DNA of 17,534 nucleotides from NCBI GenBank assembly GCA_049700215.1, contig JBNAVT010000034.1, positions 1-17,534 of the forward strand. Direction: 5' to 3'. The notes below the pieces were generated by a model. It was not told where the DNA came from. It saw only the letters and a program-made list of their open reading frames with translations, and searched no databases. The stretch is from Thermoproteota archaeon. Lineage in GTDB: Archaea; Thermoproteota; EX4484-205; JAAOZP01. Shown in pieces: positions 202-17,534 of this stretch (position 1 is its first letter; every line of letters starts with the position of its first letter). The position numbers were made by a program, and so were the translations under genes.

Positions 202-285
202 ACCCCCGAGCCAGCGGATGAGGCTGGTGGCGCAAAGCTCCGGCTGAACGCTGGAAACCCCTTCCGATAGGGAGGGATGGTTCAC
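202..285 (+). mobile_element. Orphan IS200/IS605 (IS1341/TnpB-type) right-end / omega-RNA-like remnant
   Basis: GGAAACCCCTTCC-GATA-GGGAGGGATGGTTCAC (253-285): a subterminal 7-bp hairpin (259-265/270-276) followed by TTCAC, the pattern typical of IS605-group right ends. A further hairpin GCCAGC/GCTGGT lies at 210-228. No tnpB or tnpA is adjacent. Confidence 0.55.
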
Positions 286-797
286 TTCTCTATTTCCCTT
301 AATAGTCTGGCTAAAAGTTTAGGCTCAATCCTAAAGCCTTTGCCAGCCAGCGTTAAGACGGTTTCTCTAGCATTGTTCTTCTCCAGCAACCCTTTTCTCA
401 ATGCTTCAATAATGATGTAGAGCGTCCCCCTAGCTTTAAGGCCCATTGCTTCTGCAAAAGCTCTTCCACTAGACTCGTCGATCAGCAGTAGCGTTTTGTT
501 TTCGCGAGCCAGTATTATTGCCTGAGCCTCTCCTAAGTGGATTTCTGGAGCATGCTCCACAATTTTTTCACAGAGCTTCTCCTCGTCTTCGGCAAGCTTT
601 ACAACTTTCACCCAGCCGTTGTCAACACTCTCTTTTATCACAAACGCGTCGCTGAACCCTTCTTCCAAGCCTTTTTCAACCACCTCCTTGTAAACTTCCT
701 CTGGAATAAGTACTTCGCTGAAAAGTTTCTCGAGCAACGAGAGCTCGCCAACCTTGGAGAGCCATATTAGGGGGCTTGCGTTGGATACTATGGGCAA
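282..797 (-). CDS. PIN-domain (DUF3368/COG2405-like) VapC-type toxin
   Basis: N-terminal IVSNASPLI, VLIPEEVYKE, IHLGEAQAIILA, LLIDE..GR..A..GL...GTL are typical of this PIN subfamily. Lies 16 bp downstream of the antitoxin gene. Confidence 0.85.
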   Translation of the reverse strand: MPIVSNASPLIWLSKVGELSLLEKLFSEVLIPEEVYKEVVEKGLEEGFSDAFVIKESVDNGWVKVVKLAEDEEKLCEKIVEHAPEIHLGEAQAIILARENKTLLLIDESSGRAFAEAMGLKARGTLYIIIEALRKGLLEKNNARETVLTLAGKGFRIEPKLLARLLREIEK

Positions 798-813
798 ACC
801 GGTTCTCCCCGGG

Positions 814-1107
814 TCAAGCCTTAATATCCATCTCTAGGTCGTGTTCCGAATACTGAATGAGAACACCCCTGTCGGCTAGAGCCTTGTAAAAGCACCATAG
901 AGATACACCTGCCATTTGAGCGGCTTTCCATCCTGTAACCTGTCCCTTACGATACGACTCGACCGCATGCTCCAAGTTTTTTTCCTTAAGGCTTTGTTCC
1001 AGGATTTCACGTATCAGCTTCGACCTGTCTTTCCCCTCCTTGCTTGCCAGCTCGTTAAGCTCCCTTATGATTTTCCGGGGGAGCCTTAAGCTGATTGTTT
1101 CGGACAA
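814..1107 (-). CDS. CopG/RHH + UPF0175 family antitoxin
   Basis: N-terminal ribbon-helix-helix (TISLRLP...DRSKLIREIL) and C-terminal UPF0175 pattern (Y..G.VT..KAA..AGVS...F...L..RG). TTG start. Confidence 0.85.
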   Translation of the reverse strand: MSETISLRLPRKIIRELNELASKEGKDRSKLIREILEQSLKEKNLEHAVESYRKGQVTGWKAAQMAGVSLWCFYKALADRGVLIQYSEHDLEMDIKA

Positions 1108-2620: not shown

Positions 2621-3160
2621 ATGCAAGGATTGATGAAGCCTAGATACGGATTAGCCAGTATAATGAATCCGGATAGAAGGAGGTTTATTAAAGAGATTCT
2701 TAATCTTCTTAATGGTTTTTTCGGAGAAAAACTGGTAAGTGTAGTTGTTTTCGGCTCTGTAGCAAGAGGAGATGCTAAGCCAACTAGCGATACGGATATT
2801 CTGATTGTTGCAGAAAATCTTCCTAAAAGGATTAGTGAGAAAATGGAGGTCATGGCTAAAATCCTGATTAAGCTGAGAGACACTCAAGTTTATAAAGAGC
2901 TTAGGAAGAAAGGCATTAACACGTGGGTGCAATTCTACCCTCTTACTCCGGAGGAAGCAAAAATCCATAGGCCCATCTACCTGGATATGGTTGAGGATGC
3001 GGTTATCCTGGTTGACAACGATAGTTTCATGGAGTCGGTTTTCACAAGCCTCAGGAAAAGGCTGGGTGAATTGAAAGCTAGACGTATCTACCTTAAGAAC
3101 GGAACATGGCTTTGGGATTTGAAACCGGATATAAAACGTGGTGAGGCTGTTGAGATTTGA
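2621..3160 (+). CDS. Minimal nucleotidyltransferase (MNT) antitoxin
   Basis: FGSVARGDAKPTSDTDILIV is the GSX10DXD motif. Overlaps the HEPN start by 4 bp (TTGA). Confidence 0.9.
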   Translation: MQGLMKPRYGLASIMNPDRRRFIKEILNLLNGFFGEKLVSVVVFGSVARGDAKPTSDTDILIVAENLPKRISEKMEVMAKILIKLRDTQVYKELRKKGINTWVQFYPLTPEEAKIHRPIYLDMVEDAVILVDNDSFMESVFTSLRKRLGELKARRIYLKNGTWLWDLKPDIKRGEAVEI

Positions 3161-3594
3161 ATACTGAGGCTATGGCTAAAGGCTATCTTGACGACGCTGA
3201 GTATTCCCTCCATGAGGATGAAGAAGCCTTCGCCAAGGATATGTATCACAGAACGATTAGGAGAGCACAGGAAAGTGTTGAACTAAGCCTGAAAGCTGTT
3301 CTCAGACTTCTGGGCATAGAGTATCCGCGTGAACACGATGTTAGCGACGCCCTTGTTGAGATAGCGCATGTGAGGGAACTCCCGGATTGGTTCAGGTTTG
3401 AACTGGAAACAATCAGCATTGCGAGTAAGAGGCTCGTGGGGGAAAGAGGACCAGCTTTCTACGGCGACGAGAAAGCCCTCGTTCCTCCTAGAGAACTGTA
3501 TTCCAAGGAGGATGCTGAGAAAGCAATAGATAATGCTAGGAAAATACATGAGTTGAGTAAGAAACTGTTCTACTGGTGGAAGGAAGAAAGTTGA
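3157..3594 (+). CDS. HEPN domain protein (MNT-HEPN pair)
   Basis: AQESVELSLKAVL..LGIEYPREHDV and ERGPAFYG...Y...DAEKA. Translationally coupled to MNT. Confidence 0.9.
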   Translation: MNTEAMAKGYLDDAEYSLHEDEEAFAKDMYHRTIRRAQESVELSLKAVLRLLGIEYPREHDVSDALVEIAHVRELPDWFRFELETISIASKRLVGERGPAFYGDEKALVPPRELYSKEDAEKAIDNARKIHELSKKLFYWWKEES

Positions 3595-3611: not shown

Positions 3612-4313
3612 ATGTGCTTATTGTTTAAAAACAGTATTAAAACGGTTTCTTTCGACTGTGGTGGAACCCTCTATTATGAAGCTGAAGAAGACTACGTGGT
3701 TTTCCATAGAATTCTGCTCAAGTTAGGGTATCGGTTTGAATCAGTTAGAGTTAGGGAGGCTCTGGAGGATGCACGCCTATGGTGGAGTAGGGAGAAGGCG
3801 AAGACTAAAGAGGTTTGGAACGAAAACACTTGGGCTAGGCTGCTTGGGAAAATGGTTTCTAACCTTGCGATTACGGACAGGGTTCTCGCTGAACAGTTGC
3901 GCGACTACTGGCTGTCTGAAGCAGTTTTCAAGGCATATGAGGATGCTGAGCCCGCTTTGAAGAAACTTAAGGATAAGGGTTTCAAACTGATCACTATTTC
4001 TAATGTTTCCTCTAGCAGGAGCCTCGCAACATACTTGAGGAAAACCAACCTCTTGGAATATTTCGCCATACTTGTAGCCTCAGGCGATGTGGGGTGTGAG
4101 AAACCCGATCCTGAAATATTCCGTATCGCTTCCCGTCTTTCTAAGACTCCTGTGGAGAACATGCTGCACATCGGTGACAGGTATGAAGAAGACTATCTGG
4201 GAGCACGTGCCGCCGGTATAAACGCTATTCTAATCGACAGGAAAGGGATATGCGGGGACAAGCCGTGTCACAAAATATCGAGCCTAACCGACTTAGCAGG
4301 CCTCATGCTTTAA
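3612..4313 (+). CDS. HAD-superfamily (IA) hydrolase
   Basis: Motif I SFDCGGTL, motif II ISN, motif III KPDPEIF, motif IV HIGDRYEEDY.GA..AG. Confidence 0.9.
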   Translation: MCLLFKNSIKTVSFDCGGTLYYEAEEDYVVFHRILLKLGYRFESVRVREALEDARLWWSREKAKTKEVWNENTWARLLGKMVSNLAITDRVLAEQLRDYWLSEAVFKAYEDAEPALKKLKDKGFKLITISNVSSSRSLATYLRKTNLLEYFAILVASGDVGCEKPDPEIFRIASRLSKTPVENMLHIGDRYEEDYLGARAAGINAILIDRKGICGDKPCHKISSLTDLAGLML

Positions 4314-4357: not shown

Positions 4358-4642
4358 ATGAAGATTCGTGTGGAGCTCGTGGGCCGGTTTAGAGACATCG
4401 TCGGGTCTGCGGAGATACTGGTGGATATGGAGGAGGGTAGTACTGTTCACGACCTTCTTAGGAAAATGGCTGATAAGCATGGTGAGAAGTTTAGGGAAAG
4501 GGTTTTTCAAACCGGGTCAGTGAGGGTTTCAGAGGACGTTACCATAGTCTTGAACGGAAGGGTTATCCCGGTGGACGAGGCTCACTCAGTATCTTTAAGC
4601 GAGGCGAGTAGGGTTGTTCTCATGCCTGAAGCCGTAATATAA
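4358..4642 (+). CDS. MoaD/ThiS/SAMP-like beta-grasp protein without a C-terminal Gly-Gly
   Basis: MKIRV.L...FRDIVG...GSTV.DLL..., IVLNGR, V.LMP pattern; the protein ends PEAVI*. Confidence 0.75.
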   Translation: MKIRVELVGRFRDIVGSAEILVDMEEGSTVHDLLRKMADKHGEKFRERVFQTGSVRVSEDVTIVLNGRVIPVDEAHSVSLSEASRVVLMPEAVI

Positions 4643-4678: not shown

Positions 4679-5566
4679 ATGGGGAATAAAGCTGGCTTTA
4701 GACTCGGAGCCACAGCCCTCTCGCTTGAGGGAGTGCTGGAGGGTTTAGAGCTTGAAGATGGCGCAGTGCTTCTCGACTACCCTAAGCTGGTTAGGAAGAC
4801 TGTTGAAAACGGCTTTAATCATGTTGAGCTCAGCACTGATCTCTACTACGTTCTTCCAGCCTCCTTCTCAAGGAAGAACCTGGAGGAATGGTTTTCCATG
4901 AGGGAGGAGGGTGTTACTTTCTCCGCACACCTGCCCATCTGGTCTATCGAGCTGGACTCTCCGGTGGAGGATGTTCGGGCGGCCTCGGTCAGCGCGGTGG
5001 TTAAGCCTGTTACGGTGCTGGAGGATCTTAAGCCGCTTGCGTATGTTCTCCACGTAGCTGGCCCCTTGGCTGCGGAGGTTAACAGGATGAGGGTAAACTC
5101 AGATTATAAACAGCTCTTCTTCGAGGCGCTTGCCCGCAACGCTTCCAGGAGCGTTGAGCAGATAGTCTCGCACATGGCTGATGCTGGCGTGGAGCCGCGT
5201 AGAATAGCCTTAGAGTCAATAGAGTTCCCGTTTTCGAGAACGCTTGAAATCGCAGAGAGGTTCGATACGTCGATCTGCATAGATACTGGCCATATTCTCG
5301 CCGGATACTCCGGGGATGTGAGCGTTGAAAACGTTCTTAAAAAATGCTCAAGGAGGCTCGGAGAAATACATCTTCACGACGCCTACAGGCGAGTCGAGGG
5401 CGGTAGGATGGTTGTCAGGGATCACTTGCCCTTGGGTGCTGGAGACCTTAACGTTGAAAGCTTTTTCAAAGCCTTGAGGGAAACGGGGTTCACTGGCCCA
5501 ATTGTCTTTGAACTAGGCTTAAGGGATGCTATGGCCTCTTTAAGCAAGATAGCGTCATTCCTATAG
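4679..5566 (+). CDS. AP-endonuclease-2/xylose-isomerase-like TIM-barrel metalloenzyme, similar to cobamide-remodelling phosphodiesterase CbiR
   Basis: FRLG at the N-terminus, FSAHLP, PLAYVLH, IALES, CIDTGH, IHLHD, RDHLPLG.G and PIVFE metal-binding motifs. The fold is well supported; the CbiR subfamily call is tentative. Confidence 0.65.
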   Translation: MGNKAGFRLGATALSLEGVLEGLELEDGAVLLDYPKLVRKTVENGFNHVELSTDLYYVLPASFSRKNLEEWFSMREEGVTFSAHLPIWSIELDSPVEDVRAASVSAVVKPVTVLEDLKPLAYVLHVAGPLAAEVNRMRVNSDYKQLFFEALARNASRSVEQIVSHMADAGVEPRRIALESIEFPFSRTLEIAERFDTSICIDTGHILAGYSGDVSVENVLKKCSRRLGEIHLHDAYRRVEGGRMVVRDHLPLGAGDLNVESFFKALRETGFTGPIVFELGLRDAMASLSKIASFL

Positions 5567-5925: not shown

Positions 5926-6783
5926 TTACGGGAAGAGAGGCTTAACCCCCCTGGTCTTAAAATGTTTTACAACCTCCTCCTGCTCTTCCTCGGAGAACCT
6001 TCTAAACCTTTCGCCTGCACTTATTATCTTTGGCCAAAGCCTTATGTCGCACGCCATGGAGTAGGTTGCAACCGGCTCTTGGGAAAGTGTGAACCAAACA
6101 GCCTTGTCAATATCCTCCTGCTCATCCATGGGCTCGTACCATGTCTGGTATTTCCTCTCACCGGTCCACCTGCCCTTCGAAACCGCCTTTATGGCGATAA
6201 CCCCTACATCCCTGTCCCTCGCTATTTTTAAAACCGGGTTGAAATCGTTCTCCGGGGCGGGGGCAATCATGCTTCCAACGTTTACGGGTATCAGTACAGT
6301 GTCGAATTCGAATTTCTCCAGGGCCTTAACAACAATCCTCATGTCTGAATGGGCTGTTATCCCTATGTATCGTATTAATCCCTGTTCACGAGCCTCCTGA
6401 AAGGCCTTCATAGCGCCGTCTTCGCTGAAAATTTTTTCAAGCTCCTCCAGTGTGCTGACTGCGTGAAACTGATACACATCCAGGTTTTCAACGTTGAAAC
6501 GAGACAGGGTTTGCCGTAGTTCCCTCCAAGCACCCTCCCTGGTTCTCTCAAGCGTTTTCTCTGTTATGACCAGCCTGCTACGGTTCCTCCTTATTATTTG
6601 CCCAAGCCTGGTTTCCGCTTCTCCGTAGCTGGGCGCCACGTCAACCATGTTAAGGCCCTTTTCAACAGCGTTTTCAAAGGCCTTAAGTCCCTCCTCCGTG
6701 TTAGGAGCTATCCCCGGGCCGCAGCCCCCTATCGCGAGAATACTTACCTTGAAGCCTGTTCTGCCTAGAATCCTATACTCCAC
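5926..6783 (-). CDS. Aldo/keto reductase
   Basis: YR.LGRTG.KVS, DVAPSYG.AE..LG, TEKT, LDVYQFH, GLIRYIGITAH. GTG start. Confidence 0.95.
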   Translation of the reverse strand: MEYRILGRTGFKVSILAIGGCGPGIAPNTEEGLKAFENAVEKGLNMVDVAPSYGEAETRLGQIIRRNRSRLVITEKTLERTREGAWRELRQTLSRFNVENLDVYQFHAVSTLEELEKIFSEDGAMKAFQEAREQGLIRYIGITAHSDMRIVVKALEKFEFDTVLIPVNVGSMIAPAPENDFNPVLKIARDRDVGVIAIKAVSKGRWTGERKYQTWYEPMDEQEDIDKAVWFTLSQEPVATYSMACDIRLWPKIISAGERFRRFSEEEQEEVVKHFKTRGVKPLFP

Positions 6784-7094
6784 GGGGAACTGGTTCTCAT
6801 CCTGCTTTTTAAGCTTTTCTTCGAACGCTTCCCTTCATTCAATGAGCGGCTGGCGAGCTTACCCACTGTTCCATCTACGCGCGACGAAGTAGTAGAACAG
6901 GTTCCCTCCTTGTAACCTTGCTTAAGGGGCTCATCTTGGTAGGAAAGGCCTTCCGGTGAGCGGGAAAATATAGACCCGCATGCTCCCGGCTTACCCTTCT
7001 CAGTAAGACATTTAAACAAGACGATTTCCACCGATAGGAAATGATGAAGAGGGTGCGTTTCCCTCGGCGCACGCTAAAGGAGGTGCTTCAATGA

Positions 7095-8423
7095 TTGAGT
7101 GCTTGGACTGATGACGCTGAGTACGTGAGGGTTCTCAAGGAGCTCTACGAGCTGAGGGGGATAAAGCTAGGCTTGGATGTTGTCAAGGGGGTTTTGAACG
7201 AGCTTGGAAACCCGGAGCAGGACTATCCCGTTATCCTAGTAGGGGGTACTAATGGGAAGGGTTCCACCGTCAGCATGATAAGCTCAATCCTGCGCGAGGA
7301 GGGTCTTAGGGTTGGAACTTTCACGAAGCCGCACCTATGCAGGTTCACGGAGAGAATAGTTGTGGACGGCCGGGAAATAACCAGGAGGGAAGTCGTGGAG
7401 ACTTATGAGGAGGTTAAAGAGGCTGGTGAAAAAGTCTCGAGAAGGTTAGGACGCTTTCCAACCTTTTTCGAGTGCAACGTCTCGATGGCGTATAAGTATT
7501 TCTCGATGAAAAACGTTGACGTGGCCGTCGTCGAGGTGGGTATGGGAGGCAGGCTTGATGCGACAAACGCGTGCGACCCGGTGCTTTCAGTCATAACCAA
7601 CGTCTCTTTAGAGCATATGAAGCACCTGGGTGATACTGTTGAGAAAATAGCCTTTGAGAAAGCAGGCATAATAAGGCGTGGACGGCCCACCGTATCAGCT
7701 TGTTCAGGCTCAGCGCTCAGGGTCATAGAGGAGCGCTGCAGGGAGTTGGGCTCAGAGCTTACCCTGGTGCCCAGGGATGTTAAGCACAGGGTTTTAAGGT
7801 CCGACCTGACTGGGATGACTTTGGATGTTGAACTGGGGAGGACACTTTTGAAGAACCTTAGGGTTTCGCTCAGAGGGAGTTTTCAGGCAGCGAACGTATC
7901 GACGGCCATAGCGAGCTATCTCCGGTTCTCCGAGTTAACGGGCGAATCAAACTTTAATGAGGAAGCCGTAAGGAGGGGTCTTGCCAACATTGTTTGGCCG
8001 GGGAGGCTTGAACCCATTAGCAAACGCCCCCTAGTAATATTGGATTGCGCAAAGGATCCGACGGCTGCTGAAGCGTTGTCGTCGAGCATAGAGGAGATGC
8101 TGCCGGGAGCCAGGTTTAAAACAGTCGTCAGCATCTCCTCGGATAAAGAGTACGATAAGATTCTCCGGTCTGTTGCAAGGATCACGGACGAGTTCATCCT
8201 GACTCAGCATGGCGTCATGGGAAGGGCTCTCCCGATTGAGAGGATGAAGGAGGTTTTGAAGAGTCTGAATGCTAAATACAGTTCTGAGCCGACTGTTAAG
8301 CAGGCGGTGTCTCGAGCATTGTCATGTGCTGGGGAAGAAGGTAGAATACTGGTTACGGGCTCGGTTTTCACCGTTGGGGAAGCAAGGCCAATATGGTCGG
8401 GTGAGCCTTACGACGGATTCTGA
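7095..8423 (+). CDS. folC: Folylpolyglutamate synthase / dihydrofolate synthase
   Basis: GTNGKGS P-loop, TFFE, VEVGMGGRLDATN, ITNVSLEH, IAFEKAGI, WPGRLE, TGSVFTVGE. TTG start preceded by SD AGGAGGTG (7078-7085). Confidence 0.95.
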   Translation: MSAWTDDAEYVRVLKELYELRGIKLGLDVVKGVLNELGNPEQDYPVILVGGTNGKGSTVSMISSILREEGLRVGTFTKPHLCRFTERIVVDGREITRREVVETYEEVKEAGEKVSRRLGRFPTFFECNVSMAYKYFSMKNVDVAVVEVGMGGRLDATNACDPVLSVITNVSLEHMKHLGDTVEKIAFEKAGIIRRGRPTVSACSGSALRVIEERCRELGSELTLVPRDVKHRVLRSDLTGMTLDVELGRTLLKNLRVSLRGSFQAANVSTAIASYLRFSELTGESNFNEEAVRRGLANIVWPGRLEPISKRPLVILDCAKDPTAAEALSSSIEEMLPGARFKTVVSISSDKEYDKILRSVARITDEFILTQHGVMGRALPIERMKEVLKSLNAKYSSEPTVKQAVSRALSCAGEEGRILVTGSVFTVGEARPIWSGEPYDGF

Positions 8424-9757
8424 GGCCTCCATATTATCCTAGTCAGTACTCTGGTAGCCGGTACTCCAACCAGCGTGCCGGCTAGGACTAGAAGCATCCT
8501 CTCTATAGGATAAATCCAGAAGACCGTGTACCAGATTTTCTCAAACCCCTCTCTGTTTATCATTCCGGTTAGGCCGAACACGTATTCAAACAGAGCACTA
8601 CCCGTGGAGTGTTGCGCCATGGTTCCGAGTAAGGCGCATCCTGAAAACTTCAATAGTATTGGGTCAGCCTCGTGTCTAAAATTGCTGAGCCTAATGAGAA
8701 TCAGGGAGACAGGCATTGCGACTAGGTGCAGCCAGTGGAATGGCAAGTCCACCTCTAGGCCGAGAAGGTCAAGGTGTATAAGCAGCAGGCTAAAGGGGCC
8801 TGTCATGAAAACGGTTAATGCGGAGACATAGATGAGGAGTGCTAACCATGTTTTCCTCCTCCAGAGCAAACTTACTGTCAGAGTGTTAACCAGCGGTGGT
8901 AGGAAGTCTAGATAAAGAAACCTAGGAGGCTTTATTAAGAAACCTAGAATTGTCCCTAGGAAGATTACGGTGGCTCCGTGGATGGGGCCCAGCAAGACGC
9001 CGTAAAGCGGCAGAATGACGTCTGAAACCGGGAAGCTTCCTCCAGGTACCCCTATGATTGGGAAGGCTGGGATCGCCCTTAGCACGATGAAGAGCGCCAT
9101 GAACAGGGAAGAGGTAGTAAGCTTACGAACGTCGAATGTTTTTTTACTTAAAATCGCTCTCGGTTCTCCAGCGTCGCGCCGTATGATGCTGGATTCGGTA
9201 ACCACGATGTCAACCTTCACATCGTTCTCGTCAACCGGTATGCTGTCGAAAACCTGTTCGGAGAAGGCTAAGCCGACTACTTTCTTCCCTTCGTCAAATC
9301 TCTTTAAAAACCTGTCGAAGTAGCCCTTTCCTCTGCCAAGCCTGTTGCAATTTCTGTCAAAAACCCTCCCAGGAACCACCACAAGGTCTATTTCATCCGT
9401 GCTGACGGTTCTCGCATTCTTGCGATCCGGCTCCTTCACGCCGAATGTTCCGACAACTAGTTCTTCAAGGTTTGTTATCTCGCAGGGAATCAGCTTCCCG
9501 CTTTCTTCATCAACAAGAGGCACCACGACTCTTTTACCGGATTTCAACATATCAGTAATGAGCCCGATCGTATCAACCTCGTCCTCTTTAGAAACGTAAA
9601 CCATGACACACTTTGCCCTCGAGAACTCGTCTAGACTTTTAAGCTTCGAAACCGCTTTCAAGCTCTTATCCTTCCTCTGCTGAACCGACATTGCCAGGAT
9701 CCTTTCCCCTGCTAGTTTCCTGAATTCATTCTTAGCGTTGCCGGAACCCTCGTTCAT
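8408..9757 (-). CDS. Fusion: 5-formyltetrahydrofolate cyclo-ligase + ECF transporter S-component (FolT-like)
   Basis: The N-terminal ~195 aa carry EVDT, G.FGVKEP, VVPGRVFD...RLGRGKGYFDRFL and DVKVD.VVTE (5-FCL/YgfA). The C-terminal ~240 aa are multi-pass membrane with LFMALFIVL...G.LLGP..G (S-component pattern). There is no stop between them. Start reassigned from 9898 to ATG 9757 because TATA TTTTTATA (9788-9781) lies just upstream. Confidence 0.85.
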   Translation of the reverse strand: MNEGSGNAKNEFRKLAGERILAMSVQQRKDKSLKAVSKLKSLDEFSRAKCVMVYVSKEDEVDTIGLITDMLKSGKRVVVPLVDEESGKLIPCEITNLEELVVGTFGVKEPDRKNARTVSTDEIDLVVVPGRVFDRNCNRLGRGKGYFDRFLKRFDEGKKVVGLAFSEQVFDSIPVDENDVKVDIVVTESSIIRRDAGEPRAILSKKTFDVRKLTTSSLFMALFIVLRAIPAFPIIGVPGGSFPVSDVILPLYGVLLGPIHGATVIFLGTILGFLIKPPRFLYLDFLPPLVNTLTVSLLWRRKTWLALLIYVSALTVFMTGPFSLLLIHLDLLGLEVDLPFHWLHLVAMPVSLILIRLSNFRHEADPILLKFSGCALLGTMAQHSTGSALFEYVFGLTGMINREGFEKIWYTVFWIYPIERMLLVLAGTLVGVPATRVLTRIIWRPQNPS

Positions 9758-10101
9758 TCTCAACTGTAAAAGAAGTTCCCTATAAAAACGTTTCATGAAC
9801 ATTGGAAATCCACGTGTTAAAAACGCATGCTCATCCCGGGGTTTGCACTTAAAACGGTTATAAAATTTCAGCTGACGGGAGCAACGGAATCGAAGCATTT
9901 ATAAGGACGTCTCTGTTTGAAGAAGGACACGATGTCTCGTTGGCTTAGAGAAAAGGTAAGGGTTGATGAGTCTGCCACTGGGGATGGGCGTAACTCTCAC
10001 GGTTGGAAAGTAAGCCTCAGTAGGACAAATGGATGCGTCCCCCTCGTTTCAGGGGTTCTTGAATTTGGGTTCGTGATTTACAAGGGCCCAGGTGGTTCCT
10101 G

Positions 10102-10935
10102 ATGGCGGCTAGGATGTTGAGTGGCAAGCCGGTGGCTGACGCGATTCTGGCTGAGGCTAAGGCAAGGATCGAGAAGCTGGGTTTCACACCGTCACTGCAC
10201 ATTATAAAGGCTTCAGGTTCAAAGGCTCAGGATTCTTTCGTTAAGATGAAAGTTAAAGCCTGCAACTCTGTAGGGGGGAGGGCAGTGGTGCATGAGCTTA
10301 ACAATCCTTCCGAGGCCGAGCTCATCTCGCTCATAAAGGAGTTGAATAAGGATACGAGTGTTCACGGGATAGTGGTTCAACTACCACTTCCGAAAAACGT
10401 GTCGCCGCTGAACGTATTAGAAGCCTTAGACGTTAGGAAGGATGTTGACGGTCTACACCCGGTAAACCTTGGAAGATTGTTATCTGGTCGGGAAGCCAGG
10501 CCCACGGCGACGGCAAACGCTGTGATCAGGATTTTAGAGTGGTATGGGATTAACGTAGAAGGTGCTGACGTTGTCGTCGTGAACAACAGTATACTCGTCG
10601 GAAGACCCCTGTTTGCGATGCTCACCTCGCGAATGGCAACAGTCACCGTTTGCCACGTCAAGACTAAAGACTTGAGCGAGAAGACGCTGAAGGCGGATGT
10701 CTTAATCTCTGCAACCGGTGTCCCAAGGCTCATAACCGACAAAATGGTTGCTGAAGGCGCCATAGTAATCGATGCTGGAACCAGCTTCGTCGAAGGCACT
10801 CTCGTTGGGGATGTGGATTTTCAAAGCGTTTCCCAAAAGGTGTCTGCGATAACCCCGGTTCCAGGTGGAGTGGGTCCAGTGACGGTTGCAACCATCATGC
10901 GCAATCTGGTGGAGTGTGCCTCCGAAGCCTCGTAG
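10102..10935 (+). CDS. folD: Methylenetetrahydrofolate dehydrogenase/cyclohydrolase
   Basis: VHGIVVQLPLP, KDVDGLHPVNLG, ATVTVCH, VIDAG, GDVDF, ITPVPGGVGPVT. Confidence 0.95.
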   Translation: MAARMLSGKPVADAILAEAKARIEKLGFTPSLHIIKASGSKAQDSFVKMKVKACNSVGGRAVVHELNNPSEAELISLIKELNKDTSVHGIVVQLPLPKNVSPLNVLEALDVRKDVDGLHPVNLGRLLSGREARPTATANAVIRILEWYGINVEGADVVVVNNSILVGRPLFAMLTSRMATVTVCHVKTKDLSEKTLKADVLISATGVPRLITDKMVAEGAIVIDAGTSFVEGTLVGDVDFQSVSQKVSAITPVPGGVGPVTVATIMRNLVECASEAS

Positions 10936-11588
10936 TGTGCGAATTGCTGAGAATAGGTATACTTGCATCAACCCGCGCCACCGACATGGAGCCCATCCTG
11001 GAGGCGATTAGAAACAAAAGGTTAAATGCTGAAATAGTCTGCCTCATAAGCAATAAGAAGAACGCGTATGCACTGGAGCGGGCGAGACGAAACGGTATAG
11101 AGGCAATATTCATAGACCCTAAGGGTAAGGATCCCGTGGATTACGACATGCAGGTCGCCATAGAGCTTGAGCGTAGGAAGGTTGACCTCGTGCTGCTCAT
11201 AGGTTATAACAGGCTCCTAAGCCCCAAGTTTGTGAAAAAGTTTAGGAATAGGATTATGAATATTCATCCCTCGCTTCTCCCAGCCTTTCCAGGCTGGGAC
11301 CTAAACGTTCATCGCGCAGTGCTTGAATCCGGCGTGAAGATTACAGGTTGCACTCTCCACTTCGTCGACGAGAAGATGGATGCTGGACCGATAATAATAC
11401 AGAAGGCTGTTGAAGTCAGGGAAGACGACGATGAGGAGACTTTGAAGAAGAGGGTTCAAGAGGCTGAGGGTGAAGCCCTGGTTGAAGGGATCCGTCTTTT
11501 CCAGGAAGGAAGAATCATAGTTGAGCAGGGGAAGGCTAGGATACTTCGTGGAGGGGAGACGAAACCCCTACCGGACCGCAGGTGTTGA
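10935..11588 (+). CDS. purN: Phosphoribosylglycinamide formyltransferase (PurN family)
   Basis: MNIHPSLLPAFPG, GVKITGCTLHFVDEKMDAGPII.Q. The likely start is GTG 10935, overlapping the folD stop (TAGTG), or TTG 10944, rather than 10914. Confidence 0.88.
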   Translation: MCELLRIGILASTRATDMEPILEAIRNKRLNAEIVCLISNKKNAYALERARRNGIEAIFIDPKGKDPVDYDMQVAIELERRKVDLVLLIGYNRLLSPKFVKKFRNRIMNIHPSLLPAFPGWDLNVHRAVLESGVKITGCTLHFVDEKMDAGPIIIQKAVEVREDDDEETLKKRVQEAEGEALVEGIRLFQEGRIIVEQGKARILRGGETKPLPDRRC

Positions 11589-11718
11589 AAGAGTTTTCCA
11601 AGCCTACAAGCTTATGTCTTCAGCTGGCTGGCACAACCTGGGAAAAACGTCACGCAGAATGCCAGCAGGCATAGCAAATGTTAAAAGATAATCCTAATTC
11701 GTGTTAATCGCATACTCT

Positions 11719-12633
11719 CTATGCCTTGAATATTTTGAACAATGGATGGTTGCTGGTTAATGGTCTTGTTCCAAACTCCTGCCGCATGCTGTAAGCCACG
11801 TAAGCGTCAGCCAGTGCACAATGGAAATACGCGTTTGAAGCATTGTCTATCGGCCCATATATTACGAAGTTCGCCCCCATGAATATGGGAAGCACGTCGG
11901 CTACGCTGCTTGCGATTGAGAAAAGCGTTTTATCCAATCTGCGTATCTTGTTCCACCTCTGGACTGCGTTGTGCGTCCCCGCCCCGGCTGGTAAACCATA
12001 TTTCTCCTTTACCAGATAGACGACTTTGCTGACCGGCCCTGGGTCGGGGATGTCGAGGACAGTCGCATCCACAAGGATTTTCTCGATGCCCACTTTCGAG
12101 GCTAAGGCTAAAAGCTCGTCAAGCACCTGCATTCTGCCTGCTATCGTAGGGCTTTTAGCGTTGTATGTCAGTAAGACGGCGGACTTAATCCTGGCCTCCC
12201 TGATCGCGGATATCTCAGCCTCTTTAATATGCGGCATTATCGAGTTGTAGACGACGCGTTCAGACAACCCGACTTCACCGACATACCTGGCTCCTGCAAT
12301 CCTCGCCTCCTCAGTAGTCCCATCTATAGCGAGGGGCCCGTCGATCTTGTCAGCCACGAACTCGATGAGTTTTCCAAAAGCCTGGGGCCATGTGCAGCAC
12401 ACGTCTACAATCCTCGGATTACCGGTTTTATCAGATATCTCCCCCTCCTTGTTCAACAGGTCTTCAGCCTTCCCCTTAGAGAACACTCCAGCCTTCTCAT
12501 CCTCAAATATTTTCTGTTTACTATAGAATATGCTTCCTATCATGACGGTGGGTAGTTGACCCGGCTGACCACCAACCTTCACGCCGGCAATGTCAAAAAT
12601 TTTCTGCTCCTGCTTAAACCTGAACATCCTCAT
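11719..12633 (-). CDS. mtrH: Stand-alone MtrH/MtgA-family pterin-binding methyltransferase (probable methylcorrinoid:THF methyltransferase)
   Basis: MFRF..EQ..FDIAGVKVGGQPG.LPTV..GSIFY, IDGT, YNSI, G.G.HNA, GANF..YGPI, HPLFK. No other mtr subunits occur in the window. Confidence 0.85.
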   Translation of the reverse strand: MRMFRFKQEQKIFDIAGVKVGGQPGQLPTVMIGSIFYSKQKIFEDEKAGVFSKGKAEDLLNKEGEISDKTGNPRIVDVCCTWPQAFGKLIEFVADKIDGPLAIDGTTEEARIAGARYVGEVGLSERVVYNSIMPHIKEAEISAIREARIKSAVLLTYNAKSPTIAGRMQVLDELLALASKVGIEKILVDATVLDIPDPGPVSKVVYLVKEKYGLPAGAGTHNAVQRWNKIRRLDKTLFSIASSVADVLPIFMGANFVIYGPIDNASNAYFHCALADAYVAYSMRQEFGTRPLTSNHPLFKIFKA

Positions 12634-12651
12634 CCCTTTCTTCTACCCCCT

Positions 12652-12666
12652 TTTTATACTTTTAGA
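12652..12666 (-). promoter_or_regulatory. TATA promoter of the mtrH-like gene
   Basis: The minus strand reads TCTAAAAGTATAAAA, about 20-30 nt upstream of the ATGs at 12633 and 12627. Confidence 0.5.
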
Positions 12667-12833
12667 ATCTTTCGCGACGAAGCGCCTGAAAAAGCGCGCG
12701 TTTAGAACATAACGCCCTTAGACTAGAGAGGCCGCTTGAGAAACAACCGTTGCGGGGGCTTCCTCAGCCTAACCATTATAGGGCTAAGCGTCCAATATGC
12801 TCGGAATGTTTGGGGGAATGGTGGGCAGATACT

Positions 12834-14570
12834 CTAGAAGAGGCCTCTTATCCTTCCGGTTTCCGTTTCCACATCGACCCCTAGGAAGGCGGGTTTTCTC
12901 GGGAGGCCGGGCATAAGCTGTATTTCGCCGCATATCGGGATAAGGAAGCCGGCTCCAACGAAGGCGAAAACGTCGTTGACTGGAAACGTATAGTTCTTAG
13001 GCACATTCTTCCAGAGAGGGTCATGCGAAAGGGAGAGTGGTGTTTTAGCCATGTTTACCGGAAGCCTGTCGTATCCTAGGCTGCTGTAAAACTCTATCTT
13101 TTCCTCTGCCTCAGGGGAATATTTCACGTCGCCGGCTCCATAGAGCTCAGTAGCTACAGTCTCTATTTTCTCCTTGATAGTGGCTTCATCCGAGTAGAGA
13201 AACTTCAGCTCATGCGGCTTCTTCATCGCTTCAAGAACCTTGTCAACAAGTTCCTGGCAACCCTCCCCTCCTTTGGACCAGGGGTCTACAACGGCAACGT
13301 CGTCGGCGCCAGCCTCAATGGCTTTTTCACACACCAGCCTTATCTCCCTCTCGCTGTCCGTGATAAACCTGTTGATGGCTACTACGGCCGGAATACCGTA
13401 TTTATGGACTATTTCTATGTGTCTAGCTAAATTCTCACAACCCTTTTCAACCGCTTGGAGGTTTTCTGTCTCAGCCGCCTTTTTAACCTTCTTATATGGC
13501 ATTCCTGGGCGAAGCAGGAAGGCGCCGCCATGTTCCTTAAGGGCTCTAACCGTGCAGACGATAACGGCGCAATCAGGCCTTATCTCAGGGGACTGGCGGC
13601 ATACGATGTCGCAGAACTTGGAGAAGCCGCATTCAGAGCCAAACCCGGTTTCGCAGATAACGTAATCCGCAAGCTTCAAAGCCACTAGATCAGCTATGAT
13701 CGAGTTGGTCCCGTGCGCTATGTTTGCAAACGGGAATCCATGGACTAAAACTGGGTGGCCTTCTGTGGATTGGACTAGATTAGGCTTAATGGCTTCCACG
13801 AGCAGGGCGGCCATGGCTCCGGCTACTCCAAGCTCTTCGCACGTTACCGGTTTTCTACTATAGGTGTAGGCGACGACGGCTCTTCCAAGCCTTTTCCTCA
13901 AGTCCTCCAACCCAGTAGCCAATGCGTGGATAGCCGCTGTTTCCGTCGCTACAGTTATGCTCCAGCGCGCCTCCCTAGGGTAACCGTTTGACCTTCCTCC
14001 CAATCCTATGACGACTCGTCTTAAAGCCCTAGCCTCCACATCCATGCAATAGGGCCATTCGATCGATAGGGGGTCGATGCTCAAAGGGTTTCCGTGAAGT
14101 ATGCTGGCATCTATGGCTGCTGCGCAAAGGTTATGGGCAATTTCCACTGCAGGTATGTCTCCCGTGAAATTAAGATTAATCCTGTCCATGGGTAGGGCTT
14201 GAGAGTAGCCGCCGCCGGTTGCACCACCTTTTATTCCGAAGGTAACGCCTTTAGATGGTTCTCGCAGAGTGTTGATAACCCTTAAACCCCTCTCATAGAA
14301 GGCCTGGCCTAAACCTATTGAAACGGTTGTTTTCCCCTCGCCGAGGGGTGTGGGAGTGATTGCCGTTACGATAATCAATTTGCCGCGAGGCCTATTCTTC
14401 AGCCTATTGAGAATTCTCCTGTAATCTACCTTAGCAATGTATTTCCCGTAGTTCTCAAGCTCTTCCTCCAGAATACCGGCTTGCTCAGCAACCTTCTTAA
14501 TCGGGTGGAGCTCGGTTTTATAGGCGATTTCAATGTCGCTCGGCACCGGCCAGCTTTTTATCACCGGCAT
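12834..14570 (-). CDS. fhs: Formate--tetrahydrofolate ligase
   Basis: SDIEIA, YGKYIAKV, TAITPTPLGEGKTT, LREPS.G..FGIKGGATGGGYSQ, PFANIAHG, MAKTPLSLS, MPGLP, GLF*. SD GGAGG upstream. Confidence 0.97.
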   Translation of the reverse strand: MPVIKSWPVPSDIEIAYKTELHPIKKVAEQAGILEEELENYGKYIAKVDYRRILNRLKNRPRGKLIIVTAITPTPLGEGKTTVSIGLGQAFYERGLRVINTLREPSKGVTFGIKGGATGGGYSQALPMDRINLNFTGDIPAVEIAHNLCAAAIDASILHGNPLSIDPLSIEWPYCMDVEARALRRVVIGLGGRSNGYPREARWSITVATETAAIHALATGLEDLRKRLGRAVVAYTYSRKPVTCEELGVAGAMAALLVEAIKPNLVQSTEGHPVLVHGFPFANIAHGTNSIIADLVALKLADYVICETGFGSECGFSKFCDIVCRQSPEIRPDCAVIVCTVRALKEHGGAFLLRPGMPYKKVKKAAETENLQAVEKGCENLARHIEIVHKYGIPAVVAINRFITDSEREIRLVCEKAIEAGADDVAVVDPWSKGGEGCQELVDKVLEAMKKPHELKFLYSDEATIKEKIETVATELYGAGDVKYSPEAEEKIEFYSSLGYDRLPVNMAKTPLSLSHDPLWKNVPKNYTFPVNDVFAFVGAGFLIPICGEIQLMPGLPRKPAFLGVDVETETGRIRGLF

Positions 14571-14991
14571 TATTCAACGCCTCCTTTCCCATGCATGGCA
14601 AATAGCCAACATTTAAGGCTTTCTGAGACTGTGGGGTGCCTTACGCCATCAGTCTTTTAATGACTTCTATATATCTTCCTTAGGTTCCTTTCGATACATA
14701 CAGGTATGAAAATCCAACTCTTAGGGGTTAGCGCGCTTATCATCCATTGTTTTCACGCATCGATACCATAGATAAAATCATTAAATGTCGTAACGGGTTT
14801 AATTTGCTCAGTAATCGTCTCTTTCCTCGGCAACAATTTCTACGCTTGGGTCGCATGCTCTGATCAGAACCCTCATCATCCAGAGGGCTTCCTCCCTCCC
14901 GTTCAAAGGATTTTAAGCATGTTAGCGGTTTCTGAATGCAATCTGGTGCGCGACGCAAATAAGATGTTTTTCTCTCTTGTCTCTTTCCGTC

Positions 14992-15780
14992 TTATTCTCT
15001 AAATTTCTGCATTTTATTAAGCAACTTTTTATCTGCCTCAATATCTCCCAGGCAAGTAGAAACCACACCATCTACAACGCCTTGAAGCTCTGCTAAAAAT
15101 TCCTCTGCTTCTTCTAGGGTTGTTGTAGAGGGCCATCCGATTCTTTCCAGAATCTTTTTGTTTTTAGGTGTCTCAACCACAAAATATGGATAAATGGGTT
15201 TTCCTAAATTTTTACACTCCAAAGCCAATTCTTTCAACTTCGGCAGAGAGCTCTTTTCTAAGCGTAGGAAAAGGCAGAAATCCCAAGCGTCTCTTATGCG
15301 TGCAATTGCCTCCTGCGTAGGTCTGCGACTAGTTAAGAGACAGCCTAGTTTCAACTTTTTAATCTTTACAGTATTGCGCAGGAAATCCCTAACTTCTTCT
15401 GCAGGACCAGTTTCGCGTCTGAATCTTTCAATCTCCTCCTTGTCAGAAAGAATCTCGCAGGTTCCGTCTTTTCTCGTCCTTATTGGGTATCCGTATCTGG
15501 GAGCGTCTCCAGGATCAGGCACCATCCCGTAAATCCCTAGGGCTTCACAAGCGCTTGCTGCAGCAGCGATTTCAACCGGCCCTTTATAATTAGTAATAAG
15601 CATGGGTATTATTATTTTTTGAGGATACTTTATCTTAACCGCACAGGCTACTGCAGTAGCGCTGGGAGCAGGTACTCCTCCTGCACTATCGGTGATGTTA
15701 AAGCCATCCACTAAATCCTTTATTTCTTCCGCTAAATCTAAAAAGTCTGCTTTCGGAATAAACTCGTACAATATCTTCAT
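14992..15780 (-). CDS. Divergent methylenetetrahydrofolate reductase (MetF)-like protein
   Basis: N-terminal YEFIP, VDGFNITD..GG, IIPML, ALGI...GDAP resemble the MTHFR barrel (catalytic Glu and Asp positions). Lies beside fhs. The C-terminal half is poorly recognisable. Confidence 0.6.
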   Translation of the reverse strand: MKILYEFIPKADFLDLAEEIKDLVDGFNITDSAGGVPAPSATAVACAVKIKYPQKIIIPMLITNYKGPVEIAAAASACEALGIYGMVPDPGDAPRYGYPIRTRKDGTCEILSDKEEIERFRRETGPAEEVRDFLRNTVKIKKLKLGCLLTSRRPTQEAIARIRDAWDFCLFLRLEKSSLPKLKELALECKNLGKPIYPYFVVETPKNKKILERIGWPSTTTLEEAEEFLAELQGVVDGVVSTCLGDIEADKKLLNKMQKFRE

Positions 15781-15929: not shown

Positions 15930-16685
15930 CTACACGAGCCTCATTCTTTTAAGGTTTTCTAGACAGCGCTTCACGCATTCCAGAGGCGGATGGGCATAGC
16001 TCTCCTGCTCAACAATATACCACTCGGTTCCGCCGACTGTTCTACACAGCTCAAAGAATTCACGCCACTTCATTTCCCCTTCTCCAACCACTGCCTTAGG
16101 GTCTTTAGAGGAATATTCTTTCACATGCACGGTTACGGCTCTGCCAGGGTACTTCCGGATGATCTCGAGAATGCCTTCAGCATTCACTCCCCCATGCATC
16201 GCGTTCCCAGTGTCGAGCTGCATCACCACTTCAGGGATGGTGGAGCTGAAGAACAAGTCCCATATTTTCTCCCCGTTTACAGTTTTAAATTCCATCACGT
16301 GATTATGGTACCCTACTTTCATCCCTTCTTTTATAAGCTTTCTGGCGATTTCGTTGAAAAGGTTGGCTGTCTCCAGACAACTTTTTTTTGAACTCAGCAT
16401 TTCCGCAGGCAGGCCTGGAACTATTAGAAACCTGTTTTCCAAGACACGGTTGAACTCAACAGTCTTGCCGAGCTCTTCTCCGAGCAGAGTATCTATGCGT
16501 ATATGTGTCCCCGCCACCTTTAAACCAAGGTCGTCAAGGATCGCCCTAAGGTTTTCAGCACTCCTCTCGTAATACCCTGCGAACTCAACCCCCTCGTAAC
16601 CCATTTCAGCAACAGCCTTAAGGGTTCCCTCAAGGTCTTTAGCGCAGTTCTCACGAACCGAGTAAAGCTGTAATGCTATCCCCAT
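15930..16685 (-). CDS. Sugar phosphate isomerase/epimerase (IolE-like TIM barrel)
   Basis: LQLYSVRE, MGYEGVEFAG, GYHNH..EF, QLDTG, HVKE, IVEQE. Confidence 0.92.
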   Translation of the reverse strand: MGIALQLYSVRENCAKDLEGTLKAVAEMGYEGVEFAGYYERSAENLRAILDDLGLKVAGTHIRIDTLLGEELGKTVEFNRVLENRFLIVPGLPAEMLSSKKSCLETANLFNEIARKLIKEGMKVGYHNHVMEFKTVNGEKIWDLFFSSTIPEVVMQLDTGNAMHGGVNAEGILEIIRKYPGRAVTVHVKEYSSKDPKAVVGEGEMKWREFFELCRTVGGTEWYIVEQESYAHPPLECVKRCLENLKRMRLV

Positions 16686-16866: not shown

Positions 16867-17469
16867 TCATCCAACTAAGGGTGGGTTTATGGGTAGGCCA
16901 CCGTGTTTCCAGAGCGTCTCAGTAACCGTTTCAATACCCCTTCTATAGTGGTCCGGGTGAATATCTTCAGTAATGCTCATGATGAATCCTTTTCCAGGCG
17001 CTATTTCCTCCAGCAGCCTTATTGTGAAGCTTCTCATCTCTTCAGTTTCCCTGAGGAACACTTCCTCAGGGAAGTTCATCCATACTACTTTATTCTTCCA
17101 GGCTTCTTTAGCCTCCTTGGGCGGGAGGTCTCCCCCGGGCGGGGGTGTGAAAGCCTCTACGGCGTCAAGCTTAGTCTCGGCTATCATGTTTTTAAGTGCT
17201 TTAAGCCTGCCGTCCATGTGTGAAATAACCATCTTGCCTTTCTCGTGGAGAATATCTGTGTACTTGTTGTAGTAGAGGAGGCAGTATTTTTCGAAGAGGC
17301 TTGGGGATACGAGTGCTGAATCAATGTTGTCGCCCACCCTGACTATTTCAGCCGGCGAGTCGGCTATTATCCTGTACATTTTTAGAAAACTCTTGTCCAG
17401 TGCTTCGACAAGCTCCTCTATCACCCCCCTGTTTCTGCGGTACATGATTGCGAATGTTTTGAAACTCAT
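16867..17469 (-). pseudogene. URO-D / MtaA-CmuA methyltransferase-fold protein, C-terminal half only (5'-truncated or interrupted)
   Basis: GDNID...VSP.LFEKY.L.YY, SHMDG, EAFTPPP.GD, W.NFP, GFIMSITED. Only 200 aa, starting mid-barrel; an in-frame TAG sits at 17496-17494. Confidence 0.6.
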
Positions 17470-17534
17470 GTACCTGATACGACCCTCCTTGTGCTAGTCA
17501 TCGCGGCAAAGCAGTACCGTATCCGGATTCCGCT

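Follow-up and report, generated by a model that had tools for sequence, protein, structure and literature searches.

A methylotrophic route through the methyl branch of tetrahydrofolate (THF) was proposed for Candidatus Brockarchaeota by De Anda et al. in 2021 (PMC8065059). As its main text and supplement tables present it, this model leads from MtaB or MttB and a corrinoid protein to THF, and on through methylenetetrahydrofolate reductase (MTHFR), FolD and Fhs, with no Mcr; the main text makes no mention of MtrH and calls the corrinoid-to-THF enzyme "undescribed", and the Supplementary Discussion of the paper may already name MtrH. Two other described systems employ proteins of the MtrH kind outside the Mtr complex. 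MtgA, the methylcorrinoid:THF methyltransferase in the glycine betaine system of Desulfitobacterium hafniense (PDB 6sj8), is a stand-alone member of the PF02007 fold family, and in the published account of Culexarchaeia a lone MtrH was interpreted as connecting corrinoid methyltransferases with THF or tetrahydromethanopterin (H4MPT) in non-methanogens (PMC9723716). Here we describe a 17,534-nucleotide stretch of DNA, the whole of contig C34 (JBNAVT010000034.1) of the archaeal assembly GCA_049700215.1 and hereafter the window, in which seven contiguous genes (7095-15780) combine folate salvage, an MtrH homologue and the THF enzymes FolD and Fhs with X262, a 262-aa protein that we file as a divergent MTHFR. 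On balance the cluster probably serves, to judge by its sequence and distribution, as a bidirectional THF one-carbon hub of a Brockarchaeota-type archaeon that is unable to make pterins, fed by corrinoid methyl groups.

The source genome is a draft of 2,089,643 bases in 85 contigs (94.6% complete, 0.8% contamination), and every gene reported below as not found in it was not found in a draft of that completeness; all negative genome searches gave matches in suitable control genomes. Sixteen genomes of the genus (G000 to G015, source genome included) were searched, and 80 loci were fetched from a species-representative genome collection with X262 as the query. The description of the DNA as archaeal was borne out by archaeal genes for EF-1alpha, L37ae, exosome and proteasome elsewhere in the assembly, and by the nearest loci: the seven closest (88-97% identical in X262) come from organisms named Candidatus Brockarchaeota, Thermoproteota archaeon or Nitrososphaerota archaeon. 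The coordinates of one locus, L008, are those of the match in genome G007, which is placed in the genus of the source organism. A genome named Ca. Brockarchaeota therefore belongs to the same genus as the source organism, and the carrier of the cluster is a hot-spring archaeon of the Brockarchaeota group. An earlier note on this DNA, made from the sequence alone, had cited the proposal made for Brockarchaeota; since the source organism shares its genus with a genome of that name, the pathway is the published one (PMC8065059) rather than a parallel to it. One scaffold of that study, GD2_1_5776, is our locus L011 and bears the same cluster, and the supplement table labels its gene 4 mtrH. THF methylotrophy in Brockarchaeota has thus been known since 2021 and the pathway as such is not news. 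What would be added here, on sequence grounds, is the MtrH homologue as a candidate for the "undescribed" corrinoid:THF methyltransferase, a Pfam-invisible MTHFR clade in place of a recognisable MetF, and a lineage-restricted fusion of a cyclo-ligase with a transporter S-component that goes with an apparent loss of pterin synthesis and of dihydrofolate reductase (DHFR).

All seven gene functions proposed in the earlier note hold, six of them by Pfam and NCBIfam scans and the metF-like one by the profile-profile comparison described below. The cluster opens with a gene of the FolC folylpolyglutamate synthase family (7095-8423, plus strand; 442 aa with a TTG start and the domains Mur_ligase_M and Mur_ligase_C; TIGR01499 331.9 bits, cut-off 162.65), followed on the minus strand by the fusion of 5-formyl-THF cyclo-ligase (5-FCL) with an energy-coupling factor (ECF) S-component (8408-9898; PF01812 142.7 bits, PF12822 35 bits). 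On the plus strand, folD, for methylene-THF dehydrogenase/methenyl-THF cyclohydrolase (10102-10935; PF02882 191 bits, PF00763 98.8 bits), is overlapped at its end by purN, for glycinamide ribonucleotide formyltransferase (10914-11588; TIGR00639 190.4 bits, cut-off 150.1). The remaining three genes lie on the minus strand and encode a stand-alone methyltransferase of the MtrH/MtgA family (11719-12633; PF02007 286 bits), the formate-THF ligase Fhs (12834-14570; PF01268 756.7 bits; NF010030 694.8 bits, cut-off 652) and X262 (14992-15780). In five related loci (L005 and L007-L010), in which FolC is 92-95% identical, the order URO-D family gene, TIM-barrel gene, X262, Fhs, MtrH, PurN, FolD, 5-FCL/S-component and FolC is kept, and in two loci truncated by contig ends (L006 and L011) the cluster parts within reach are all there. 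Moreover, X262, MtrH and Fhs have an identical distribution in the genus, all three being confined to 8 of the 16 genomes (G000, G002 and G006-G011, all of about 2.0-2.3 Mb). Because the order is kept in five related loci and these three genes co-occur in the same genomes, the arrangement of the cluster is not chance.

X262 has no Pfam match at E<=10 and no NCBIfam match, and thus does not reach the gathering score of PF02219, the family of canonical MetF; a PF02219 scan of the source genome scored one candidate and gave no match, so that no canonical MetF was found there. Searches of PDB sequences with phmmer returned chance matches only (E>=0.35), and a profile of the X262 clade alone (A1) found nothing in the PDB at E<=10. 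Nevertheless, 564 homologues were retrieved, of which the best 120 are mostly exactly 262 aa long and 60-79% identical across bacterial phyla, with Omnitrophota, Nitrospirota/Thermodesulfovibrionales, Kiritimatiellia and Actinomycetota among the organisms named; an alignment of 30 homologues had a mean column identity of 73%. Our literature searches found no description of this family.

The relationship to MetF emerged from wider comparisons. Against 1.84 billion representative proteins, the A1 profile gave 110 matches at E<=0.001; besides fragments, these were a family of about 240 aa and two full-length proteins from the X262 clade itself. It reached protein P0197 at E 2.1e-8, and P0197 itself matches PF02219 at 63.4 bits. 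Among the 74 near-full-length representatives matched by A1, 29 match PF02219 at E<=0.01 and 15 score above its gathering score, and no other family recurs. A profile widened to include the PF02219-positive relatives (A2) placed 15 MTHFR sequences above all else in the PDB, the best being that of T. thermophilus (3.7e-8), with "lrGDpp" aligned on RGDPP. Finally, hhalign comparison of A1 with a set of seven MetF sequences (A3, comprising three PF02219 genes from bacterial loci, two PF02219-positive relatives and two short archaeal MetFs) gave a probability of 98.3% and an E-value of 1.3e-14 over 241 columns, end to end; "YEFIPK" falls on "CEIGPPK" and "DPGD" on "LTGD", so that the conserved Glu and Asp of MetF are matched. 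A language-model atlas also names the X262 cluster an MTHFR family protein.

The predicted structure agrees with this assignment. The AlphaFold model of X262 (pLDDT 93.2, pTM 0.90) is a beta8-alpha8 TIM barrel resembling solved MTHFRs, and Foldseek ranked H. influenzae MetF (5ume) first, with an E-value of 6.8e-8 and a TM-score of 0.69, generic barrels following close behind. Glu6 lies in strand 1 and Asp92 directly after strand 4, the places of the catalytic Glu and of the Asp of the "RGD" motif; in a 45-sequence joint alignment, Glu6, Gly91 and Asp92 are the sole invariant columns. We take Glu6 and Asp92 to be the positions of Glu28 and Asp120 in E. coli MetF, and PDB titles among the Foldseek matches name mutants at Glu28/Asp120, and at Glu9 in the mycobacterial enzyme. 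X262 is nonetheless some 30-40 residues shorter than both canonical MetF (PF02219; E. coli 1zp3, T. thermophilus 1v93) and the FAD-independent mycobacterial MTHFR (8bgr, 7wmz), and is only 11-16% identical to the solved enzymes; the wider-family motifs "IPHxR" and "RGD" read "IPML" and "PGD", with the His and Arg replaced. Since the tests of homology, fold and catalytic residues agree, though the curated family model fails, X262 is filed here as a divergent member of the MTHFR superfamily.

The distribution of X262 within the genus is what one expects of an enzyme sharing its step with another. Six genomes (G001, G003, G004, G012, G014 and G015) hold instead a short MetF of 249-257 aa (PF02219, 38-46 bits) beside MetE-like genes, and the two genomes of low completeness (G005 and G013) hold neither. 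X262 and the short MetF are thus mutually exclusive, in 8 and 6 genomes respectively, although this amounts to no statistical test because the genomes are kin. No short MetF/MetE pair was found in the source genome (best E 0.11). The weak PF02219 matches in the six congeners had been considered as X262 orthologues and were rejected: they are separate short MetF genes adjoining MetE-like genes, and tblastn of the window proteins found nothing in L085-L088. In the supplement tables of the 2021 study the MTHFR calls are KEGG K00297 matches of about 62-63 bits in other genomes, and by these weak scores they may be short MetF rather than X262 (PMC8065059).

For the phylogeny of X262, 79 loci and the window were used, L031 having been dropped by the length filter. 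In the resulting unrooted tree the eight Brockarchaeota-type sequences form a clade (SH-aLRT 99), whose sister group consists of seven Nitrospirota sequences (98), the two together being supported at 93, and 38 Bathyarchaeia-type sequences of 240 aa sit on a long separate branch (100). As the tree is unrooted, it gives no direction of transfer. X262 carries an insert of its own, of about 20 residues at roughly positions 100-125, relative to these 240-aa archaeal sequences. One tip deserves caution, as the X262-type protein of L075, a Deltaproteobacteria contig, is identical to that of L066, a Bathyarchaeia contig (zero branch length), probably through a mis-binned contig.

For all 80 loci, the genes up to four positions away from the X262-type gene were grouped into clusters, whose representatives were scanned for families. 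Around the 38 Bathyarchaeia-type genes we found CofE in 21 cases, CofD in 10, a nitroreductase in 8, an FrhB-like protein in 7 and Mtd in 4; in the layout of these loci (L047-L084), tandem CofE-like genes stand upstream on the opposite strand, and FrhB-like, nitroreductase and CofD genes lie downstream of the 240-aa relative. This setting hints that the 240-aa relatives may be F420-linked MTHFR-like enzymes or have a role in F420 synthesis. For the 35 bacterial loci, 106 of the 124 neighbours within two genes were scanned, the other 18 being covered by cluster representatives or unscanned. In eight of these loci a gene of folate, C1 or corrinoid metabolism lies no more than two genes from X262, namely MetF in L017, RACo and Fhs in L018, a corrinoid protein, RACo and Fhs in L023, PurL in L026, a corrinoid protein and Fhs in L029, serine hydroxymethyltransferase (SHMT) and MetH parts in L031 and L034, and FolD in L042; the neighbours in the remaining loci are unrelated. 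In L032 (Dehalococcoidia, about 7082-13017), the genes flanking X262 encode the small and large subunits of a NiFe hydrogenase and an HdrA-like flavo-iron-sulfur protein of 665 aa, and a PF02219-type gene lies at a distance of four genes; this arrangement recalls the MetF-Hdr-Mvh assemblies of acetogens.

Such neighbourhoods bear on whether X262 is a reductase at all. It could instead bind methyl-THF as a methyltransferase module with a corrinoid as its partner, or be another kind of TIM-barrel oxidoreductase, linked to F420; the step between methyl-THF and methylene-THF would then be missing or done otherwise. The F420-related genes around the 38 Bathyarchaeia-type homologues would fit this, as would the fold scores of F420 enzymes, which tie with those of MetF, the replaced motif residues, and the position of X262 between RACo or a corrinoid protein and Fhs in L018, L023 and L029, where no MtrH or MeTr lies within two genes. 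Set against these are the full-length profile homology to MetF with both acidic residues aligned, the recurrence of PF02219 and of no other family among the near-full-length relatives, the mutual exclusion with PF02219-type MetF, and the fact that MtrH already fills the methyltransferase role in the cluster; we therefore regard a non-reductase X262 as improbable.

A broader evolutionary scenario may be sketched, which we hold only tentatively as a whole. X262 would represent an unrecognised and unusually conserved MTHFR clade (60-79% identity from Brockarchaeota to Nitrospirota, Actinomycetota, Acidobacteriota, Chloroflexota, Bipolaricaulota and Thermotogota), the true reductase of many anaerobes scored as MetF-less, with an electron carrier other than the classical bound FAD and NAD(P)H. 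The 240-aa archaeal sister clade, with its cofE, cofD and frhB-like surroundings, would be F420-linked. In Brockarchaeota, an exchange of the X262 gene with thermophilic Nitrospirota, and its pairing with an MtrH like that of Bathyarchaeia, would have created the archaeal THF methylotrophy route. The MTHFR step of the cluster rests in any case on a family that is invisible to Pfam and NCBIfam and has hundreds of members of near-identical length in many anaerobic phyla, and genomes with X262 would be listed as "MetF-less" in surveys that rely on PF02219 or the KEGG orthologue to detect MetF. What donates electrons to MTHFR has long been a question in the energetics of anaerobic C1 metabolism, and a new MTHFR clade offers a new handle on it.

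The methyltransferase at 11719-12633 is the sole PF02007 gene in the source genome and stands alone, as neither MtrA nor McrA was found in this genome (both searches match in methanogen controls). It passes the family-level model NF002142 (292.6 bits, cut-off 287), lies just below the TIGR01114 mtrH equivalog (267.2 bits, cut-off 271.4) and falls well short of the MtgA equivalog (260.8 bits, cut-off 550). Among solved structures it scores 226 bits (E 7e-66, full length) with D. hafniense MtgA, about as strongly (231 bits) with chain 8z9u_B, and 173.5 bits with the MtrH of the Mtr complex (9qtp_o). By these structure-based scores the protein is nearer to MtgA than to Mtr-complex MtrH; an MtgA type would be plausible, short of an equivalog assignment. 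In contrast to MtgA, the gene has no adjacent MttB-family or corrinoid gene and is embedded in a folate cluster; the published mtrH of Culexarchaeia shares its locus with mttB and the corrinoid genes, in genomes that have parts of both pterin branches (PMC9723716), whereas in the source organism mtrH is grouped with fhs, folD and X262, and searches for H4MPT enzymes found none. Beyond the genus, the protein is nearest (60-75% identical) to homologues from Bathyarchaeia, Thorarchaeota, Hecatellales, Thermoprotei and Poribacteria, and no named methanogen is among the 120 homologues listed. By sequence, the protein is the obvious candidate for a methyl-corrinoid:THF methyltransferase. The suggestion that the cluster was assembled piecemeal fits such mixed ancestry, X262 being sister to Nitrospirota sequences and MtrH nearest to those of Bathyarchaeia.

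We then took an inventory of C1 genes across the source genome. Within 6 kb on contig C4 lie the genes for MtaB (585 bits), a RACo/AcsV-like activator and a 215-aa corrinoid protein, and contigs C2 and C19 carry two MttB-family genes that are uninterrupted by stop codons and score under the Pyl-type cut-off (non-Pyl). The corrinoid methyltransferase systems on which a methylotrophic role would depend were thus found in the genome; however, the cluster is not the self-contained module it had been taken for, because other contigs (C4, C2, C19 and C9) encode the first methyltransferase (MT1), the corrinoid protein, the activator and the ECF energiser. The earlier interpretation was largely right, but it re-derives a model already published for the same lineage and overstates self-containment. 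The genome further contains one SHMT-family gene (188 bits), CofE and, on contig C12, a 308-aa MetE-like gene (PF01717 86.7 bits; 165 bits with the PRK00957 "methionine synthase" model, cut-off 258). No Pterin_bind-type MetH was found in it. CdhC of CO dehydrogenase/acetyl-CoA synthase (ACS) was found in none of 26 genomes, the source genome included, so that a complete Wood-Ljungdahl pathway is not indicated. The reductive glycine pathway is invoked in the text of the 2021 paper (PMC8065059); here the glycine-cleavage T protein (GCV_T) was found in 0 of the 16 genus genomes and in 2 of 2 genomes of another genus.

From the family memberships, the conserved clustering and the co-occurrence of X262, MtrH and Fhs, we infer a flux through the methyl branch that would begin with methyl groups from methanol, delivered by MtaB, or from methylated amines, delivered by the two non-Pyl MttB homologues. 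These would be taken up by the corrinoid protein, presumably kept active by RACo, and the MtrH/MtgA-type enzyme would move them on to THF. X262 would interconvert methyl-THF and methylene-THF, FolD would take methylene-THF to 10-formyl-THF, and Fhs would release formate with the formation of ATP or run in the reverse direction, with PurN and the SHMT-like enzyme drawing on the same THF pool. Without ACS and the glycine-cleavage T protein, the branch would thus end, in this genus, in formate, serine and purines and not in acetyl-CoA or glycine.

A number of observations weigh against such a hub fed by corrinoid methyl groups. PurN, FolC and 5-FCL are housekeeping or anabolic genes, and six sister genomes have a MetF-MetE pair, the arrangement of methionine synthesis, in place of the cluster. 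Three congeners (G003, G012 and G015) hold MtaB with no MtrH, Fhs or X262, and in five relatives (G012:C4, G015:C38, G020:C9, G021:C42 and G023:C178) mtaB has, no more than about 2 kb away, a gene for a MetE-like protein of about 310-325 aa (PF01717, 69-80 bits); this protein is a candidate for an MtaA-like second methyltransferase or for a methionine synthase fed by methyl-corrinoid. This suggests that methanol-derived methyl groups have another outlet in these relatives, and given the three congeners and the five gene pairs, methanol use needs no such cluster. Conversely, in G009 (C9:55942-56728) mtaB is in three pieces with TAG and TGA stops, through pseudogenisation or an assembly error, and the THF cluster is intact. 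The neighbours of the mtrH homologue are purN and fhs, and not MT1 and corrinoid protein genes; the S-component scores 26.8 bits with the folate-family model TIGR04518, whose cut-off is 60; and every absence cited rests on the incomplete draft. The idea of a methylotrophy module consequently stands in part, upheld by the corrinoid systems of the genome and weakened by the housekeeping genes within the cluster and by MtaB in congeners that lack it.

A purely anabolic role would accommodate several of these points. Fhs would then activate formate, and FolD and X262 would reduce it for purines (through PurN), serine or thymidylate and methyl-THF; MtrH would load a corrinoid protein from which a core-MetE-like enzyme makes methionine, and the methanol and methylamine methyltransferases would be unrelated to the cluster. 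Core MetE enzymes accept methylcobalamin. In addition to PurN, FolC and 5-FCL inside the cluster, the short MetF/MetE pair that replaces it in six genus genomes and MtaB in congeners without it, the MetE-like gene on C12 and the failure to find a Pterin_bind-type MetH in the source genome speak for this role. Yet that MetE-like gene is unlinked to the cluster, MtaB is also found in the cluster-bearing genomes (intact in 6 of the 8, broken in G009 and a fragment in G010), and a dedicated corrinoid activator is located with MtaB. Moreover, Fhs, MtrH and X262 are gained or lost jointly, along with about 0.5 Mb of additional sequence, which looks like an accessory catabolic trait and not core biosynthesis. 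We hence consider the anabolic explanation possible but rather unlikely, and retain the methyl-fed, bidirectional THF hub as the working interpretation.

The pterin on which the cluster acts was examined through the same inventory. The 20 open reading frames (ORFs) of the window, when scanned with Pfam, included no methanopterin enzyme, no other Mtr subunit and no de novo folate gene, as the earlier note had stated. The wider check also went in its favour: in the source genome we found neither the H4MPT enzymes MCH and FTR nor, for de novo folate synthesis, GTP_cyclohydroI (PF01227, FolE), GCHY-1 (PF02649, MptA/FolE2), HPPK (PF01288, FolK) or Pterin_bind (PF00809, FolP), the archaeal MptE family not having been searched. 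A methanopterin-like pterin as the true substrate would be in keeping with the use of H4MPT by methanogen members of the MtrH family and with the presence of CofE, by which F420 may be made. With MCH, FTR, MtrA, McrA, GCHY-1 and Pterin_bind all not found in the genome, and with FolC, FolD, Fhs, PurN and 5-FCL being folate-family enzymes above curated cut-offs, such a substrate appears very improbable.

Folate itself would have to be acquired, and the fusion protein suggests how. Its longest ORF encodes 496 aa, with PF01812 at residues 56-235 and PF12822 at residues 258-376 (cut-off 30.7); the public gene call places the start 47 codons later (8408-9757, 449 aa), which is likely to be the true start. 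Hydrophobic segments are confined to residues 260-486, in the C-terminal half, and contig C9 carries CbiQ/EcfT and two EcfA ABC ATPase genes, so that both an S-component domain and an EcfAA'T energiser of an ECF transporter are encoded. The protein shares with FolT, a group II ECF S-component that uses a common EcfAA'T, the PF12822 domain, several hydrophobic segments and an operon of EcfT and two EcfA genes elsewhere in the genome; unlike FolT, it is fused to 5-formyl-THF cyclo-ligase, falls below the folate-family cut-off and, apart from one distant case of 354 aa, was seen as a fusion in this archaeal lineage alone. The fusion occurs in about 20 clusters, the named ones all from Thermoproteota or Nitrososphaerota. 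Folate is the probable substrate of the S-component, to judge by its fusion partner and neighbours.

In the proposed salvage route, the S-component half, powered by the EcfAA'T of C9, would import a reduced folate, the attached cyclo-ligase would convert 5-formyl-THF to 5,10-methenyl-THF, and FolC would polyglutamylate the folate for retention. Because the cyclo-ligase makes methenyl-THF from 5-formyl-THF, this route needs no DHFR, and DHFR_1 was indeed not found in the source genome. Given the apparent loss of pterin synthesis and of DHFR alongside a fused folinate cyclo-ligase/transporter, a requirement for reduced folate is predicted, which would be useful in attempts to cultivate this uncultured group. 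In a recent study that defined folate auxotrophy by missing FolK and FolP, about 29% of bacteria were predicted to be auxotrophs, and the trait was shown to have prevented the isolation of hot-spring Atribacterota (PMC13408713). The relevant passages and supplement tables of the 2021 Brockarchaeota study mention neither folate salvage nor the 5-FCL/S-component fusion (PMC8065059).

The intergenic gaps of the cluster measure 149-421 bp, and from these gaps the separate promoters suggested in the earlier note may be presumed. The longest separates fhs from X262 (14571-14991, 421 bp) and holds ORFs of at most 72 aa alone; this spacer is unlike the sequence in the contigs of relatives, in which the flanking genes still align. 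No Rfam family was found in the window at gathering scores and hence no riboswitch lead. Contigs from two sequencing runs labelled metatranscriptomic span the clusters of relatives on both strands, but these runs are flagged "probably DNA" and are uninformative on transcription.

Two further genes adjoin X262 on the minus strand. The first, a conserved neighbour that is syntenic in L005-L010, encodes a 251-aa xylose-isomerase-like TIM-barrel protein (15930-16685; PF01261 62 bits). The second is the URO-D family gene (16867-17534; PF01208 49.9 bits, profile positions 163-342 only), which runs towards the contig end, matches the family model in its C-terminal part alone and encodes 359 aa in relatives. 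Its full-length copy in L007 (7741-8820) scores 42.7 bits with NF004889 (cut-off 244), so that its likeness to MtaA-type methyltransferases is weak; in that locus (6632-8820) the gene is preceded by a 363-aa ORF without a family match and by a glycerol kinase/GlpA-like/DUF1667 set.

On the other side of the cluster, 1.5 kb upstream of its folate genes, the window encodes a homologue of CbiR, a cobamide-remodelling phosphodiesterase (4679-5566, plus strand; NF041277 120.1 bits, cut-off 105), preceded by a HAD hydrolase gene (3612-4313) and a ThiS-like gene (4358-4642). The CbiR homologue may provide corrinoid salvage for the methyltransferases. Near the start of the contig, a ribbon-helix-helix/UPF0175 gene beside a DUF3368 gene (282-1107, minus strand) resembles a toxin-antitoxin pair. 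Pairs of nucleotidyltransferase and HEPN genes were seen three times, at 2621-3594 of the window, on C4 (L090:9681-10558) and on C2 (L091:14171-14882); the pair on C4 lies between mtaB and the corrinoid protein gene, and that on C2 about 4.6 kb from one of the mttB homologues.

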